A stretch of 64,000 nt of DNA from Candidatus Cloacimonadota bacterium. Lineage in GTDB: Bacteria > Cloacimonadota > Cloacimonadia > JGIOTU-2. The stretch is from the NCBI GenBank assembly GCA_016932035.1, contig JAFGDR010000031.1, positions 71,399-135,398 of the forward strand, given 5' to 3'. The notes beneath the pieces are model-generated. The model did no database searches. It worked only from the letters and a program-made list of their open reading frames with translations, and was not told where the DNA came from. The position numbers were made by a program, and so were the translations under genes. This document shows, one piece after another, positions 21,158-29,578 of the stretch (the stretch's first letter is position 1; every line of letters starts with the position of its first letter).

Positions 21158-21526
21158 GTGAAAAACGGAGAAAATAATTTAGATACAATTATTGGTGAGC
21201 ACACAACATTTAATGGAGAAATTCATTCCGAGGGTGGTGTTCGTATCGATGGCAGTGTTGAAGGAAAAATAAAATGTGATGGATTTCTGCTGGTCGGAGA
21301 GAAAGCGAATATAAAAGCAGATATTCAGTCGTGCGAAGCGATCATCTCTGGGAAAGTGGAAGGGAATATTACAATTGAAAAGAAATTAGAACTTAAAAGT
21401 TCTGCATATATAAACGGAGACATCATAGCACGTGTTCTTTCCATGGAATCCGGCACGCAGATCTGCGGAAATTGCAGTGTTAAACAGGTTGATGGTCCCA
21501 AAAGCACGAAGAAGTCAAAAGAATAA
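21158..21526 (+). CDS. Bactofilin (polymer-forming cytoskeletal protein)
   Basis: DTIIGEHTTFNGEI, RIDGSVEGKI, ISGKVEGNI, INGDIIARVLSMESG. GTG start. Confidence 0.9.
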   Translation: MKNGENNLDTIIGEHTTFNGEIHSEGGVRIDGSVEGKIKCDGFLLVGEKANIKADIQSCEAIISGKVEGNITIEKKLELKSSAYINGDIIARVLSMESGTQICGNCSVKQVDGPKSTKKSKE

Positions 21527-21529
21527 CCA

Positions 21530-21766
21530 ATGCCGTTGAAAAATAAGGGATATTATAAGGAAGTATTCGAGGGACTCGGCCTTGTGGCGCAACTTGGACT
21601 CACAATGGTTATCAATATTCTCATATTCTTTTTTATCGGACTTTTCATTGATAGAAAATGGCATTTAAAGGGATTCCCGATCATTATTGGTATTTTTTTA
21701 GGCATTGTTACCGGTGCGATGTCCTGCTATCGAATGATAAAAAAAAATGAAAATTCTGACAAGTAG
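21530..21766 (+). CDS. AtpZ/AtpQ-like small two-TM protein
   Basis: GLVAQLGLTMV...GLFIDRKW...GIFLG pattern at the head of the atp operon. Confidence 0.8.
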   Translation: MPLKNKGYYKEVFEGLGLVAQLGLTMVINILIFFFIGLFIDRKWHLKGFPIIIGIFLGIVTGAMSCYRMIKKNENSDK

Positions 21767-22133
21767 CTTCCGCAAATACGTTTATCACATTCTCGGGCTA
21801 ATTTTCTTGACAGAGATTCCGGCACTTTTGCTTATCACAAAAAACTTGAAGCTCTGGCTGGGATATTTTCTAGGCTCGATCCTTTCAGGTTTAAATTTTT
21901 ATTTTCAGGCAAAGGGTGCAGAAAATCGAGTTGGGCTCAGCCCTTCCGGTGCAAAAGTTAGTATTTTCAAGAATTTCTATATCAGGTACCTGACACTTCT
22001 CGTATTTGTGGTCGTTCTTGTAAAATTTCTTAAGGTCAATATATTTTCACTTCTTGCCGGCTTACTCATAGCTCCCATCATCGTACTCGTCGATGGAATT
22101 TTTGCCGGGAAAAATAATCAAATATCAGAATAA
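21747..22133 (+). CDS. atpI: ATP synthase protein I
   Basis: Four TM helices, YIRYL motif, immediately before atpB. Confidence 0.75.
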   Translation: MKILTSSFRKYVYHILGLIFLTEIPALLLITKNLKLWLGYFLGSILSGLNFYFQAKGAENRVGLSPSGAKVSIFKNFYIRYLTLLVFVVVLVKFLKVNIFSLLAGLLIAPIIVLVDGIFAGKNNQISE

Positions 22134-22144
22134 ACGCAAAGTAC

Positions 22145-22975
22145 ATGAAAAAAAAGTCCAAGAAATTATTGGTAATCGTTCTCACAATACTCATTATTGA
22201 GGGGCTTATTTCGGTTGGGCTAAATTACCAGCTTCAAATTGGATTCGATGAAGGGAAGCTTATCATTCGAAATGTTGCGACCGATCTTTCCATACAGGAT
22301 AGGATAACGCACGAATTTCAGCACTATCATATGGTAAAGTTGTTTGGGAAATTCATGATCAACTGGAGTGTTCTTCGCGTCATCCTTTTCGTCGATCTTT
22401 TTTTGATACTTTTTGCTATTCTTGTAAGAAGAAAAATGTCTCTCATCCCTGGTAAACTGCAAATTATAGCTGAAATGATCTACTCATTTTTCTATAGTCT
22501 TGTCGTTGAAACGATTGGGGAAAAGAAGAAATATTTCACACCGTATATTTTTACAATTTTTATATTTATCTGGCTTTGTAATATCATCGGTTTGATCCCG
22601 ATACCAGGTAATCTTGAGCCGACAAGAAATCTCAATGTTCCGCTTGGAATGGGAATCATGGCTTTGAGTGTTGTTCATTTTTCTGCAATAAAAGCAAAGG
22701 GACTTGGACGTTATCTAAAGGAATACACCGAACCGCTTCCTTTCATGACACCCCTGAATGTTGTTAGTGAACTTTCAAATGTTATTTCTCTCTCCTTCCG
22801 TCTTTTTGGAAACATACTGGGAGGAGCAATTATCATCTTGGTCGTTTCAAATCTGACACGATATATCCTTATACCGGTTGGCTTGAATTTATTCTTCGGT
22901 TTGTTCATCGGAACAGTACAGGCATTCGTCTTCACGATGCTTATACTGTCATATACCGCAGTAGCGATAAAATAA
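22145..22975 (+). CDS. atpB: F0 subunit a
   Basis: PGKLQ, NIIGLIP, PTRNLN, SLSFRLFGNI (essential Arg), GTVQAFVF. Has an extra N-terminal hydrophobic segment. Confidence 0.95.
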   Translation: MKKKSKKLLVIVLTILIIEGLISVGLNYQLQIGFDEGKLIIRNVATDLSIQDRITHEFQHYHMVKLFGKFMINWSVLRVILFVDLFLILFAILVRRKMSLIPGKLQIIAEMIYSFFYSLVVETIGEKKKYFTPYIFTIFIFIWLCNIIGLIPIPGNLEPTRNLNVPLGMGIMALSVVHFSAIKAKGLGRYLKEYTEPLPFMTPLNVVSELSNVISLSFRLFGNILGGAIIILVVSNLTRYILIPVGLNLFFGLFIGTVQAFVFTMLILSYTAVAIK

Positions 22976-22978
22976 ATT

Positions 22979-23710
22979 ATGTTTGATACAGTAAGCTTGA
23001 TACATGTTGCAGCATATATAGGTGCCGGACTCGCCGTGGGCATCTCATCCATCGGAGCAGGTGTTGGTGAGGGTTATATTGCCGGCAATGCTAATTATGC
23101 TATGATGAAACAGCCCAAGTCAAATGATGTGCTTCTACGCACAATGCTCATTGCCCAAGCAATAACTGAGACAGGAGCCATTTTCGCTCTCGTTATTGCT
23201 ATGCTCCTTCTTTTTGGGGGTTCCATTGTTCCTGATGCAGGATGGCAGAGAATAGCATCACTCTTTGGTGCAGGGCTTGTCATGGGAGCTGGATGCCTGG
23301 GAACGGGGCTTGGTATTGGTTATGCAGGAGGGCAGGCATGCCAGGGCATTGGCAGACAACCCAGAGAAGCAAAGACCTTAACAGCAAATATGCTTATTGG
23401 ACAGGCATTGTCAGAAACCTCAGCCATCTTTGCCCTTGTTATTGCCATGCTTCTTTTATATTCAACACCGGACGGAAACAGTGTGGTCAAATCTTTTGCA
23501 TTTATCGGTGCGGCATTTGCAATGGGATTCGGCACGTTCGGTCCAGGATTTGGAATCGGTATCGTTGCAGGAAAAACGGTTGATGGGATCAGCAGATTCC
23601 CCAAACAGTCCTCAGTTCTTCTTCGAACCATGTTCGTAGGTGCAGCGGTATCAGAATCAACATCAATATATGCATTAGTTATTGCATTTTTATTATTATT
23701 CGTAACGTAA
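22979..23710 (+). CDS. atpE: Triplicated F0 c subunit (three fused hairpins)
   Basis: Three c-type repeats, each with a GxGxGxG helix, a polar loop (KQP/RQP/RFP) and an acidic residue: E64 (QAITETG), E146 (QALSETS), E226 (AAVSESTSIY). Confidence 0.9.
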   Translation: MFDTVSLIHVAAYIGAGLAVGISSIGAGVGEGYIAGNANYAMMKQPKSNDVLLRTMLIAQAITETGAIFALVIAMLLLFGGSIVPDAGWQRIASLFGAGLVMGAGCLGTGLGIGYAGGQACQGIGRQPREAKTLTANMLIGQALSETSAIFALVIAMLLLYSTPDGNSVVKSFAFIGAAFAMGFGTFGPGFGIGIVAGKTVDGISRFPKQSSVLLRTMFVGAAVSESTSIYALVIAFLLLFVT

Positions 23711-23730
23711 TTTGATCCTTAGGAGGATAC

Positions 23731-23970
23731 ATGGAAAGTGAAATCATTAGAGCAGCAGCTTTGTTAGGTGCCGGCATTTGTATGGGATTCGGTGCTATCG
23801 GACCTGGAATCGGTGAAGGATTCACCGCAGGAAAAGCTTGTGAAGGTATTGCACGCTCTCCTGAAAACGCAGGATTACTCACAAGAACAATGCTTGTTGG
23901 CCAGGCAGTATCGGAATCTACCGGTATCTACTCGCTCGTTATATCCCTGTTGCTTATTTTCGCAGTGTAA
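23731..23970 (+). CDS. atpE: F0 c subunit with Na+-binding signature
   Basis: GPGIGEG (E29), RSPE loop, QAVSESTGIY (E62, S63, T64, Y67), matching the Na+ ligand pattern of Na+-type c rings. Confidence 0.95.
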   Translation: MESEIIRAAALLGAGICMGFGAIGPGIGEGFTAGKACEGIARSPENAGLLTRTMLVGQAVSESTGIYSLVISLLLIFAV

Positions 23971-24024: not shown

Positions 24025-24522
24025 ATGGTTAATATCGATTATACGCTTATTCTGGTAATTGTAAATTTTATAATTTTACTGATTATCCTAAAAAAGCTCT
24101 TGTATAAGCCGCTTATGGATTTTATTCGGAAGAGAGAGTCGCAGATCAAGGAAGATCTCGAAAGCGCGCAAAAGCATAAAGAATCATCAGAAAAAATATT
24201 GGAAGAACAAAAGAAATTACTCAGAAAAGCAAAAGAAGAAGCGCGTGATATTCGTGACGAAGCTATCAAGCTTTCGAAGATTCAAAGTGAAGAGATTCTT
24301 CATGATGCAGAAGCTCAGCGAGATGTGATCATTGGCGAAGCCCAGGAGATGATCAACGTCGAAGTTATCAAGGCGAAAGAAAGCATACAAAAAGAAATCG
24401 GTGAGTTTGTCGTTGACCTGACTGACAGGATAATCGGAAAGAAACTGACCGAAGATGAAGACCTAAAACTCATCGATGAGATGATCAAGAAGGAAAGCAA
24501 AAAGGAGTCGTCCGTTGATTAG
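24025..24522 (+). CDS. atpF: F0 subunit b
   Basis: N-terminal TM helix, LYKPL...RE..I, long coiled coil, operon position. Confidence 0.93.
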   Translation: MVNIDYTLILVIVNFIILLIILKKLLYKPLMDFIRKRESQIKEDLESAQKHKESSEKILEEQKKLLRKAKEEARDIRDEAIKLSKIQSEEILHDAEAQRDVIIGEAQEMINVEVIKAKESIQKEIGEFVVDLTDRIIGKKLTEDEDLKLIDEMIKKESKKESSVD

Positions 24523-25045
24523 AAATATCATCGCTCGGCGCTATTCAAAAGCTCTTCTTGAAGTTATTGAAGATAGTGATTTACCTCGTCTCGAAAATGA
24601 ATTGCTTGCTTTACAGACAATCCTCAAAGATAACCTAGAAATCGAAAAGTTTTTTATTTCACCGATTGTCGAAGATAGTCATAAAAAGGAGATTGTAGAG
24701 CTTCTTATGAAAGAACTTCGGGCACAGGATGTCATAAAGAATTTCCTGAATGTACTTATCGATAAAGAGCGGATTTTTTTCATTGCTGATATACTCAATG
24801 AACTCCTTGCTTCTATCCACAAAAGACTCGGGATCTATGATTTTGATCTTGTCACCGCGCATGAGATAGATGAAAATACTTTTCAAAAAATAAAGAAATT
24901 TGTTGCAAAATACGTTGATGGAGAGGTGCTTTTCAACCATAAGATAAATCCGAATATAAAGGGTGGATTTCTTGCTTATAATGACGAAATGGCGATCAAT
25001 GCATCCATCAGAAACAACCTCGATGAGTTGAAGAGGAAATTTTAA
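24515..25045 (+). CDS. atpH: F1 subunit delta
   Basis: [24 protein letters not shown], operon position. TTG start. Confidence 0.92.
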
Positions 25046-25071: not shown

Positions 25072-26763
25072 ATGATGAAAATACAACCTGATGAAATTAG
25101 TAGAATAATCAAAGAAAAGATAGAGAAATATAATTATAAGGTCGATATAGACGAAGTCGGCAGAGTTATCGAAGTTGGTGATGGCATTGCTCGTGTGTAT
25201 GGTCTACAGGATATCATGGCTTCTGAGCTCGTTCTTTTTAATAATGAAATATACGGCATGGCATTGAACCTCGAAGAGGATAATATCGGATGTATTATTC
25301 TTGGGGAAAGTGAATCCATCAAAGAAGGCGATATTGTTAAAAGAACAAAGAAGATCGTTCAGGTTCCTGTTGGTGAAGCTATGTTGGGACGTGTGGTCAA
25401 TCCTCTTGGAATACCTCTTGATGGTAAAGAACCGATAGAGTCAAAATTAAGCTTGCCGATCGAAAGAAAAGCTCTTGGTGTTGTAGCACGACAACCGGTG
25501 ATCGAACCCCTTCAGTCCGGCTTAAAAGCAATTGACTCGATGATCCCTATTGGAAGAGGGCAGAGAGAACTCATTATTGGCGACCGCCAGACAGGAAAGA
25601 CAGCACTCGCAGTCGATACGATCATCAACCAGAAAGATACTGATGTATATTGTATCTATGTGGCAATCGGCCAGAAAAGATCCTCGGTTGCAAAAGTCGT
25701 TGAAGCATTGCGCGAGCGCGGAGCTCTCGATTATACGATCATTGTATCTGCCACAGCATCAGATCCTGCAGCAATTCAATATATCGCGCCTTATTCAGGT
25801 GTAACAATGGGAGAATATTTCCGTGACAGGGGAAAACATGTCCTCGTTATCTATGATGATCTCTCAAAGCACGCTGTTGCATATCGACAGATTTCGCTTC
25901 TCTTGAGAAGACCTCCGGGTAGAGAAGCGTATCCCGGCGATGTGTTCTATCTGCATTCAAGACTTCTCGAAAGAGCTTCAAAGCTGGAAGAAGTCTATAT
26001 CATTATTCCTAAAGAAAAAGAGCATGCAAAAGAGGGAGTGAATAAAAAAGAATATCGTAAGCATATCAAATCAAGTGCTAAAGAGCTTGAAAAAGACCTT
26101 AAGGAACTCGGTGTTGAAAAATGTAAACCGTATAAACTTCCCGAAACCGGTGGTTCACTTACAGCACTTCCCATCATCGAAACCCAGGCAAGCGATATAT
26201 CAGCTTATATTCCTACAAACGTGATCTCAATCACAGACGGACAGATATATCTTGAATCAAAGCTCTTCTTCTCCGGTGTACGACCGGCCATCAATGCCGG
26301 ACTCTCGGTATCCCGTGTTGGCGGTAAAGCACAGATCAAGGCAATGAGACAGGTGGCAGGACGTCTTCGTATCGAGCTTGCACAGTTCAGAGAACTCGAA
26401 GCGTTTGCGAAATTCGGTGCAGAACTCGATAAGGATACACAGGATCAGCTTAACCGTGGATATCGATATGTTGAGATCCTCAAGCAGGGACAGTACAAAC
26501 CCATACCTGTTGCAAAGCAGATCGCTATCATCTTCATGGGTTATGAAGGATATCTCGATGACCTTCCCGTTGATATTATTCAGGATGTTCAGGCAGAGCT
26601 TTTTGAAGTACTCGATAAAGATTATAAGAAACTGCAAGAGAAATTGATTGAGCCGAAAGGTGTGACTGAAGAAATCGAAAAACAGCTGCATGAAGTTTCG
26701 AAAAAGGTAAAATCCGTTTTTGAACACCAAGTCATTGTCGAGGAAGTTGAAGAGGAAGCATAA
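25072..26763 (+). CDS. atpA: F1 subunit alpha with a large insertion
   Basis: [53 protein letters not shown]. Confidence 0.98.
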
Positions 26764-26773
26764 ACGGTAGATC

Positions 26774-29158
<2,385 letters not shown>

Positions 29159-29159
<1 letters not shown>

Positions 29160-29578
29160 TGGCAGATAATTCAACTTTGATCCATATAAAGATCATTACA
29201 CCAAAAGGTGTTTTTTTCGAAGATGATGTCAGCGAGATCGTTGCACCTGGCACCGAAGGAGATTTCGGCGTGCAGTTAGGACATACTCCCTTTATCTCAT
29301 CCGTTCGACCTGGCATCTTAAAGATATATAAAAATGATAAACCCGACATCTATACTCTTATGAATGGTTTCGTGATGGTTGATGTTGATAAAATCAGGAT
29401 CTTTACAGAGATCATTGAGCATCCTGAGGAGATCGATCTTAAACGAGCTGAGAAAGCAAAAGCAAGAGCTGAAAAAAGATTGCAGGAAAAGAAGGAAGAA
29501 ACGGATCTTCGTCGTGCTGAAGCTGCATTGAGAAGAGCTGTAGCTCGAATTAGCCTGCATGACACAGGATTCCATTAA
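29159..29578 (+). CDS. atpC: F1 subunit epsilon
   Basis: IITPKG, PGTEGDFGV..GHTP, IDLKRAEKAKARAE, ALRRAVAR. Confidence 0.96.

Follow-up and report, generated by a model that had tools for sequence, protein, structure and literature searches.

Hybrid rotors are known from the Na+ F1Fo ATP synthases of Acetobacterium woodii and Clostridium aceticum (PMC7911925, PMC9171764). The ring of A. woodii is a proven 9:1 hybrid (PMC9171764). In this rotor (PDB 4BEM), c1 has two hairpins, with one Glu replaced by Gln, and c2/c3 have one hairpin. Archaeal c subunits have 1, 2, 3, or 13 hairpins (PMC9171764). According to a survey of rotary ATPases, duplications within c are much rarer in F-type than in A-type enzymes, and A. 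woodii was the only F-type case cited (preprint 10.64898/2026.10.01.756066). Here we describe a pair of c subunits from Candidatus Cloacimonadota bacterium, which are encoded in a 64,000-nucleotide stretch of contig JAFGDR010000031.1. (We call this whole stretch the window, and coordinates are positions within it.) One of them, c3x, has three fused hairpins; the other, c1x or small c, has a single hairpin. On balance, we favor the view that the cell's only F1Fo ATP synthase has one heteromeric c-ring, in which c3x and small c are combined. Together with relatives that have four or five hairpins (4x and 5x), c3x seems to belong to an undescribed extension of the A. woodii type of hybrid rotor: in the literature we found no description of F-type c subunits with at least three hairpins, although a prior mention in reviews of hybrid rotors is possible.

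The features of the two rotor genes are:

22979..23710, + strand: c3x, fused three-hairpin c subunit, 243 amino acids, six transmembrane helices (ATP-synt_C in three stretches)
22979..23224, + strand: hairpin 1 of c3x, residues 1-82, with E31, E64, T65, G66, and F69 (hairpin alignment)
23225..23467, + strand: hairpin 2 of c3x, residues 83-163, with I113 (codon 23315-23317), E146 (GAA, 23414-23416), T147, S148, and F151
23468..23707, + strand: hairpin 3 of c3x, residues 164-243, with I193, E226, S227, T228, and Y231 (hairpin alignment)
23721..23726, + strand: Shine-Dalgarno sequence AGGAGG, 4 nucleotides before the ATG of small c (read from the sequence)
23731..23970, + strand: c1x, single-hairpin small c, 79 amino acids, with E29, E62-S63-T64, and Y67 (ATP-synt_C in one stretch)

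The reading frame of c3x runs for 243 codons without a stop, and its product matches the Pfam family ATP-synt_C three times in series (E = 1.6e-46, 156.8 bits, cut-off 24). Small c has one match (E = 2.5e-18, 66.5 bits, cut-off 24). A preliminary description, made from the sequence alone, had reported three fused hairpins in a 243-residue c followed by a 79-residue c. Both reading frames and the Pfam stretches confirm this, and every ligand residue that it named in the two proteins is present in the translations. If c3x is cut between residues 82 and 83 and between residues 163 and 164, the three hairpins and small c align nearly without gaps, and each has a carrier carboxylate in the middle of its C-terminal helix (E64, E146, and E226 in c3x and E62 in small c). 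The two genes are flanked by atpB and atpF, and the F1Fo operon to which they belong is canonical and complete, with all genes on the + strand (AtpZ-like, AtpI, a, c3x, c1x, b, delta, alpha, gamma, beta, and epsilon). Chance could not plausibly produce such an arrangement. So gene order and Pfam also bear out the claim that a three-hairpin c and then a c with a Na+ motif lie in an F-type operon.

We considered whether c3x might be a triple-hairpin K subunit of the archaeal A-type. The NCBIfam model for F0F1 subunit C (NF005521) matches c3x in three stretches with 171 bits, versus a cut-off of 122. The model for the V-type K subunit (NF004913) aligns to residues 12-241 with 70.3 bits, which is under its cut-off of 211. 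Given this score and the F-type operon, we rejected that identity.

Several lines of evidence make a hybrid ring the most economical explanation, and the prediction of a heteromeric rotor in the preliminary description is retained on these grounds. First, the pair is conserved. We surveyed 151 genomes drawn evenly across Cloacimonadota, with 15 families sampled. In 13 of these families, we found three matches in a frame of about 250 amino acids and one match in a frame of about 85 amino acids. (The other two families have a two-hairpin protein instead.) The preliminary description had proposed searching F-type operons for proteins with three ATP-synt_C domains; it had not seen that they are a phylum-wide trait, nor that 4x and 5x forms exist besides. 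In all 20 of the related loci that we fetched, small c lies directly 3' of c3x. The two genes are co-oriented at every locus, with gaps of 3 to 168 nucleotides and no sign of separate regulation.

Second, both genes are under strong purifying selection. Within the window's genus, the ratio of nonsynonymous to synonymous substitution rates (dN/dS) for c3x is 0.013-0.029, at a dS of 0.8-2.6, and the small c protein is identical across the genus despite 23-33 synonymous differences. Phylum-wide conservation is 86% for small c and 59-65% for the hairpins of c3x. As far as sequence goes, this selection speaks against the possibility, raised earlier, that the large c is not expressed. We also ruled out a pseudogene or an assembly artefact: the dN/dS, the agreement among four genomes of the genus, and an independent contig from marine sediment all speak against it.

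Third, this operon appears to encode the only rotary ATPase of its genome. The host genome (2.44 Mb, 95% complete, and 0.3% contaminated) has just four ATP-synt_C matches, which are precisely the three hairpins of c3x and small c. A profile search with ATP-synt_C found neither a V/A-type rotor nor a second F-type operon in this 95% complete genome, so we discarded the idea that one of the c genes serves a second rotary ATPase.

Fourth, the predicted fold of c3x fits the fused subunit of a known hybrid ring. An AlphaFold2 model of c3x, built with 93 family sequences, has six long helices (mean predicted local distance difference test score, or pLDDT, of 92.8 and predicted template modeling score, or pTM, of 0.86). 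When this model was compared to PDB with Foldseek, the top hit was A. woodii c1 in its ring conformation (4bem_J; template modeling (TM) score of 0.83 on the target, root-mean-square deviation of 1.6 Å, and 165 columns). The next matches were V-type proteolipids from eukaryotes and Enterococcus. By Foldseek, no solved chain in PDB spans all three hairpins (query TM score of at most 0.63). A. woodii c1 is also the best PDB match of c3x by sequence (E = 1e-26).

Fused c subunits can work in F-type enzymes: Jones and Fillingame reportedly showed in 1998 that fused c2 and c3 constructs of Escherichia coli assemble into working rings. Those constructs were made in the laboratory from identical repeats and retain every carboxylate, whereas the repeats of c3x are three diverged and conserved classes. 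By analogy, it is mechanically plausible that the natural c3x works in a ring.

The likeness to A. woodii extends beyond the fold. Both operons have the order atpI, atpB, multi-hairpin c, single-hairpin c, and then atpF onward, and both have Na+-type motifs. A. woodii c1 is the best match, in both sequence and structure, to hairpins 1-2 of c3x. Also, in the family of c3x, the hairpin after the first one mostly has Gln, and a hairpin that precedes one with Gln has Phe and not Tyr at its end, as in A. woodii c1. But there are several differences. The window has three hairpins (and relatives have four or five), as compared to two in c1. Hairpins 2 and 3 of the window's c3x have lost the helix-1 ligand and have Ile in its place, where A. 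woodii retains Gln. All hairpins of the window's c3x have Glu, and small c has E...EST...Y instead of Q...ET. Finally, c3x originated independently of c1.

The evidence for an independent origin comes from the wider family. The 120 best homologues of c3x comprise 93 three-hairpin, 19 four-hairpin, and 8 five-hairpin proteins, and the closest named homologues are from metagenome-assembled genomes (MAGs) of Cloacimonadota. Seven sequencing runs contain related sequence, from sediment and marine-sediment metagenomes. The 4x and 5x genes have the equivalent position in F-type operons, and each is followed by a single-hairpin c; besides the Desulfobacterales described below, metagenome contigs carry such pairs of both kinds. 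In a tree of hairpins, the first, second, and third hairpins of the 3x proteins and small c are each monophyletic (support of 0.94-0.99, and 0.98 for hairpin 1), so the fusion is older than the divergence of the sampled Cloacimonadota. The first hairpins of the 3x, 4x, and 5x proteins form one clade (support of 0.86), as do their middle hairpins (0.85), and their last hairpins form one clade with small c (0.86). From this tree, the 4x and 5x forms are middle-hairpin duplications of a common ancestral design. The hairpins of A. woodii c1 share 68-70% identity with A. woodii c2 but only 35-46% with the hairpins of the 3x-5x family; they group with c2 (support of 0.91) and with F. nucleatum c, apart from all classes of the family. 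Since c1 clusters with c2, the resemblance of c3x to A. woodii c1 is convergent and the duplication is independent. The best PDB match and a shared linker Trp had suggested that c3x is A. woodii c1 with an extra hairpin, but the identities by class and the hairpin tree refute this.

Archaeal A1Ao c/K subunits (three hairpins in Methanocaldococcus jannaschii and 13 in Methanopyrus kandleri) resemble c3x in that at least three hairpins are fused and in having fewer carboxylates than hairpins (PMC9171764; preprint 10.64898/2026.10.01.756066). Unlike them, the window's hairpins are F-type (about 170 bits for F0 c versus 70 bits for K) and are encoded in an F1Fo operon, and members of the 3x-5x family are always accompanied by a separate gene for a single-hairpin c.

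To scan species-representative genomes for the 4x form, we used a 4x profile, which found 517 relatives. We characterized the best 80 of the 517, and nearly all of these are labelled as Desulfobacterales or related sulfate reducers. Cultured carriers include Desulfosarcina variabilis, D. alkanivorans, D. cetonica, and Desulfatibacillum alkenivorans; a MAG labelled Desulfonema limicola is also among the 4x relatives. The 4x gene is paired with a single-hairpin c at 76 of the 80 best loci, and the other four loci are cut by contig ends.

What the two proteins would do in a shared ring depends on their ion sites. In the c11 ring of Fusobacterium nucleatum (PDB 3ZK1), Na+ is bound by Glu32 and Glu65 of one subunit and by Val63 O and Ser66 of its neighbor; a water is held by Thr67, and Tyr70 hydrogen-bonds Glu65 (PMC3692424). 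(This ring differs from the one we propose in that it is a homomer of single hairpins and has no fused subunit.) Because the sites lie between subunits, the motifs that were first read hairpin by hairpin must be re-paired. At positions 32, 63-68, and 70 in the Ilyobacter/Fusobacterium numbering, the window's c3x has EITETGAF in hairpin 1, ILSETSAF in hairpin 2, and IVSESTSY in hairpin 3, and small c has EVSESTGY. Small c has all of the F. nucleatum-type two-carboxylate Na+ motif (E29, E62, S63, T64, and Y67), which includes matches to Ser66, Thr67, and Tyr70. Both small c and hairpin 1 of c3x (E31 and E64) carry the Glu32/Glu65 pair.

We derived the register of the sites from covariation within fused subunits and not from model coordinates. 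In all 14 cases of Tyr70 in hairpin i, Glu is present in hairpin i+1. Polar residues at position 67 of hairpin i are associated with Glu in hairpin i+1 (odds ratio of 26, p = 6e-29, or odds ratio of 22 on unique motif pairs). Neither count is corrected for common ancestry, and a few positional classes dominate both. For the opposite register (hairpin i-1), there was no positive association within the fused subunits. A. woodii c1 obeys the same register: its ETSGIF hairpin precedes its QTTGIY hairpin. It is thus probable that each ion site lies between two hairpins, with residues 63, 66, 67, and 70 from hairpin i and with position 32 and Glu65 from hairpin i+1.

With this register, the small-c sites would be full two-carboxylate Na+ sites. 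E31 and E64 of hairpin 1, with Ser, Thr, and Tyr from the preceding subunit, would also form a complete site of this type. The other two sites look stripped: hairpin 2 has I113/E146 and would be lent T65, G66, and F69 by hairpin 1, and hairpin 3 has I193/E226 and would be lent T147, S148, and F151 by hairpin 2. Both lack the helix-1 ligand and Tyr. S227, T228, and Y231 of hairpin 3 would be lent to the site of the next subunit. The preliminary description had noted differing ligands in all three hairpins and spoken of partly degenerate sites. The differences in ligands are real, but treating a hairpin as a self-contained site was wrong, and the covariation points to a complete site at hairpin 1 and stripped sites at hairpins 2 and 3.

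The combination of Ile-32 with Glu-65 is conserved (80 hairpins). In an ungapped alignment of residues 174-240 of c3x to residues 9-75 of E. coli c, I193 falls on I28 and E226 falls on D61. Fewer polar ligands favor H+. Because the stripped sites have few polar ligands and resemble the H+ site of E. coli at these two key positions, we infer that they are H+-type.

The carrier residues vary across the family. Of the 93 three-hairpin proteins, 89 have Gln at position 65 of the middle hairpin; Glu is found at this position in hairpin 1 of 63 proteins and in hairpin 3 of 79. The number of these Glu is zero in 3 proteins, one in 38, two in 48, and three in 4. (The 4x proteins have 0-3 and the 5x proteins have 1-2.) Conservation of I193 across the family is 90% or more, and small c is near-invariant, with EVSESTGY in 19 of 21 genomes. 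In the window, c3x has Glu in all three hairpins, so it does not show the Glu-to-Gln loss that is seen in the fused subunit of A. woodii. I113 and E146 are present in all four genomes of the window's genus and in none of 17 genomes from other families, and a second strain, from a different sample of marine sediment, has the same E146 codon in its contigs. The next relatives (70-84% identity) have N...Q at these positions. As the I113/E146 state is confined to the window's genus, N113I and Q146E are a derived and linked pair of changes that has long been kept.

In the mixed ring that we favor, small c would supply most of the hairpins, given its high conservation and its strong ribosome-binding site. 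c3x would enter the ring as a covalent block of three hairpins, probably in one or a few copies. The fused block would be the place where evolution switches carrier carboxylates on or off, which would change the ions per turn while the number of hairpins stays constant. In the window's genus, the usually blank middle site would have been switched back on. The c3x family probably sets the number of ions used per ATP. Rings of 11 hairpins are known from I. tartaricus and F. nucleatum (PMC3692424) and from A. woodii (PMC9171764). As an illustration, if we assume 11 hairpins and one c3x per ring, then each turn would move 10, 9, or 8 ions in relatives with 2, 1, or 0 Glu in c3x, and 11 ions in the window's enzyme, two of them at stripped sites. 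The proposal in the preliminary description that such a ring tunes the ion/ATP ratio fits the 0-3 Glu of the family, but c3x in the window loses no Glu, and a lowering of the ratio as in A. woodii does not apply to it.

Several points weigh against a mixed ring with these properties. As no Glu is lost in the window, the main advantage known for hybrid rotors, namely that fewer ions are needed for each ATP, does not follow directly there. The register carries the caveat about ancestry given above. Motifs can mislead about the coupling ion: Sporomusa ovata has a Na+ motif, yet its ATPase is Na+-independent (PMC9430772). The argument from Shine-Dalgarno sequences is weak, since GGAG precedes c3x in most relatives and AGGAGG does so in two. 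Lastly, the sole metatranscriptome yielded only short divergent pieces, from conserved regions of alpha and beta of other organisms.

The Shine-Dalgarno sequences deserve a closer look. The ATG of c3x begins 3 nucleotides past the TAA stop of subunit a, and small c begins 20 bases 3' of c3x. As we read the sequence, c3x in the window is preceded by no Shine-Dalgarno sequence, unlike small c. GGAGG precedes small c in 18 of 21 loci, and the corresponding sequence of c3x is weaker or missing; in most of these loci, c3x starts about 0-11 nucleotides after the atpB stop. We considered Shine-Dalgarno strength as a proxy for stoichiometry, but the contrast is clear in the window's genus and inconsistent across the phylum, which leaves it as a weak hint only.

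A possible but doubtful elaboration of the mixed ring is that it combines many full Na+ sites with two stripped H+ sites for each c3x, so that subunit composition would set the ratio of Na+ to H+ drive, and that the 3x-5x subunits are a general, hitherto undescribed selector of gear and fuel in the F-type ATP synthases of bacteria. Flips between Glu and Gln would then choose a Na+ site, an H+ site, or a blank at each hairpin, and N113I with Q146E would be a step from a blank to an H+ site in the window's genus. A further point in favor of the mixed ring itself is that genes for both an Rnf complex (RnfC, 576 bits) and an Nqr-like cluster (with NqrF exceeding the equivalog cut-off) are present in the host genome. 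The rnfCDGEAB genes are at C18:2395-7596 of the host contigs, and the Nqr-like cluster, at C54:84983-88571, spans nqrB (truncated by the contig end) to nqrF. These clusters are consistent with a Na+-based energy economy at the membrane.

We think it unlikely that c3x is in the ring mainly for mechanical or assembly reasons, with its ion sites being secondary. In this role, c3x might nucleate the ring with AtpI, fix the number of hairpins, or provide a docking patch for gamma and epsilon. In other Na+ F1Fo enzymes, AtpI acts in the assembly of the c-ring. All of the operons that we compared have AtpI and AtpZ, and an AtpZ-like gene heads the 4x and 5x operons as well. The lower conservation of the c3x hairpins relative to small c, the free flips of carrier residues between Glu and Gln among relatives, and the differences between the three cytoplasmic loops (KQP, RQP, and RFP) would all suit such a keystone. 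However, site residues covary with the neighboring Glu or Gln, so selection acts on the chemistry of the sites. Also, N113I and Q146E are fixed across a genus in which dS is saturated, which is contrary to neutral drift at these positions.

It is less likely still that c3x and small c form two separate homomeric rings (c3x alone in, say, 3 or 4 copies, which would give 9 or 12 hairpins). The cell would then have two isoforms of the rotor, which would differ in ion/ATP ratio or in ion preference according to conditions. A triple-hairpin c does form the rotor alone in some archaeal A-type enzymes (cf. PMC9171764), single polypeptides with 7 to 15 hairpins exist, and c3x in the window retains all three Glu. 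But many relatives have a c3x with one Glu or none, which could not drive a ring alone. Furthermore, the adjacent and co-oriented genes show no sign of separate regulation, and the only characterized case of such a gene layout, A. woodii, makes one mixed ring (PMC9171764).

Finally, it is very improbable that c3x is a relic, either unexpressed or left out of the rotor, beside a functional ring of small c only: the missing Shine-Dalgarno sequence in the window's genus would fit this, but dN/dS is very low, the reading frame is intact in over 90 clusters and 13 families, the fold is predicted with confidence, and the monophyletic hairpin classes imply that the gene is older than the split of the sampled families and has been retained ever since.

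Co-assembly of c3x with small c, which is what we infer, would matter for energy conservation. The ion/ATP ratio of an ATP synthase sets the smallest quantum of energy that can be conserved, and so it is central near the thermodynamic limit. Lifestyles for which this is relevant include the syntrophs, fermenters, and sulfate reducers of sediments and digesters. Among bacterial F-type enzymes, only that of A. woodii (and C. aceticum) is known so far to reach a lower ratio through mixed subunits, and its fused subunit has two hairpins. The whole phylum Cloacimonadota and the large order Desulfobacterales encode subunits with 3 to 5 hairpins at the equivalent position of the operon. If these fused subunits enter the ring, then bacterial ion/ATP ratios would be much wider and more evolvable than has been assumed, and bioenergetic models of abundant anaerobes, which rely on counts of c subunits or on reading a single motif, would need revision. 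The window's genus would be a natural experiment in which a normally blank site was turned back on, and cultured Desulfosarcina and Desulfatibacillum with the 4x form make the question directly testable.

The other genes of the operon are:

21530..21766, + strand: AtpZ-like small membrane protein (ATPase_gene1), which opens the operon (Pfam PF09527, E = 4.1e-12)
21747..22133, + strand: AtpI (Pfam PF03899, E = 1.9e-7)
22145..22975, + strand: subunit a (atpB), 276 amino acids (Pfam PF00119, E = 1.1e-49), with the conserved stator Arg in LSFRLFGNILGG (motif from the translation)
24025..24522, + strand: subunit b (atpF) (Pfam PF00430)
24515..25045, + strand: subunit delta (OSCP) (Pfam PF00213)
25072..26763, + strand: subunit alpha, 563 amino acids (Pfam PF00006 in two stretches, PF02874, and PF00306)
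26774..27640, + strand: subunit gamma (open reading frame; its position matches that of PF00231 genes in related operons)
27621..29159, + strand: subunit beta, 512 amino acids (Pfam PF00006, PF02874, and PF22919)
29159..29578, + strand: subunit epsilon (Pfam PF02823 and PF00401)

AtpI is classed as an assembly factor and not as a subunit (PMC7911925). In alpha (25072-26763), the PF00006 domain is interrupted by a Lys/Glu-rich insertion of about 50-60 residues after about residue 306. Beta (27621-29159) continues past its last Pfam domain in a Lys/Glu/Ser-rich C-terminal tail of some 45 residues, and its GTG start overlaps the 3' end of gamma.

Within the phylum, a few genomes depart from the usual arrangement. 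The families f6 and f9 (genomes G003, G019, and G012) are without the F-type 3x and 1x pair and have a two-hairpin proteolipid. In G003, the one genome that we checked, this protein (G003:C1:1243228-1243635; L029) has 171 amino acids and adjoins a gene for V-type subunit I, so at least this lineage uses a V/A-type ATPase. In one relative (G022), the 3x gene and the small c gene are on separate contigs (C49 and C11). Two relatives have an extra gene for a lone c-type hairpin away from the operon (G141, C35:4365-4544, and G037, C1:1238-1423).

We also noticed unusual c-type proteins beyond the phylum survey. Metagenomes encode single polypeptides with many c-type hairpins, namely P0167 (1139 amino acids, 15 hairpins), P0160 (968 amino acids, 12 hairpins), P0197 (1042 amino acids, 12 hairpins), P0270 (784 amino acids, nine hairpins), and P0175 (524 amino acids, seven hairpins). 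Nearly all of their hairpins keep the Glu, and each of these proteins may make up a rotor by itself, as in Methanopyrus kandleri. P0122 (434 amino acids, five hairpins, and 46% identical to c3x) has the motifs IESTY, IESPY, IESPY, LESPY, and IESTY. With Ile or Leu at position 32 and Glu at position 65 in every hairpin, it looks like a fused subunit of putative H+-type sites only. The 4x protein of D. cetonica (L109 2501-3475) has SVCQTTSY followed by EVSETTGY: hairpin 3 has both Glu65, whether restored or retained, and Glu32, and the hairpin before it has Thr67 and Tyr70. By our register, this site would be complete, in contrast to hairpin 2 of the window's c3x with its bare Glu. In a divergent 4x group ("MVGS"; L041 and P0089), the carrier position of hairpin 1 is Gly, Ser, or Ala, and the total number of Glu is 0-1. 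The F-type operon of L041 is on a contig with N_methyl/SBP_bac_10 genes, and this contig may belong to Planctomycetota or relatives.

The genes 5' of the window's operon are mnmG, rsmG, parA, parB, an M23 peptidase, and a bactofilin. The bactofilin gene (21158-21526) is directly 5' of the AtpZ-like gene. A bactofilin gene (L037 4309-4665) has the same position, just 5' of the AtpZ-like gene, in a five-hairpin operon on an unrelated metagenome contig, which hints that the operon and its neighbor may have moved between phyla together.

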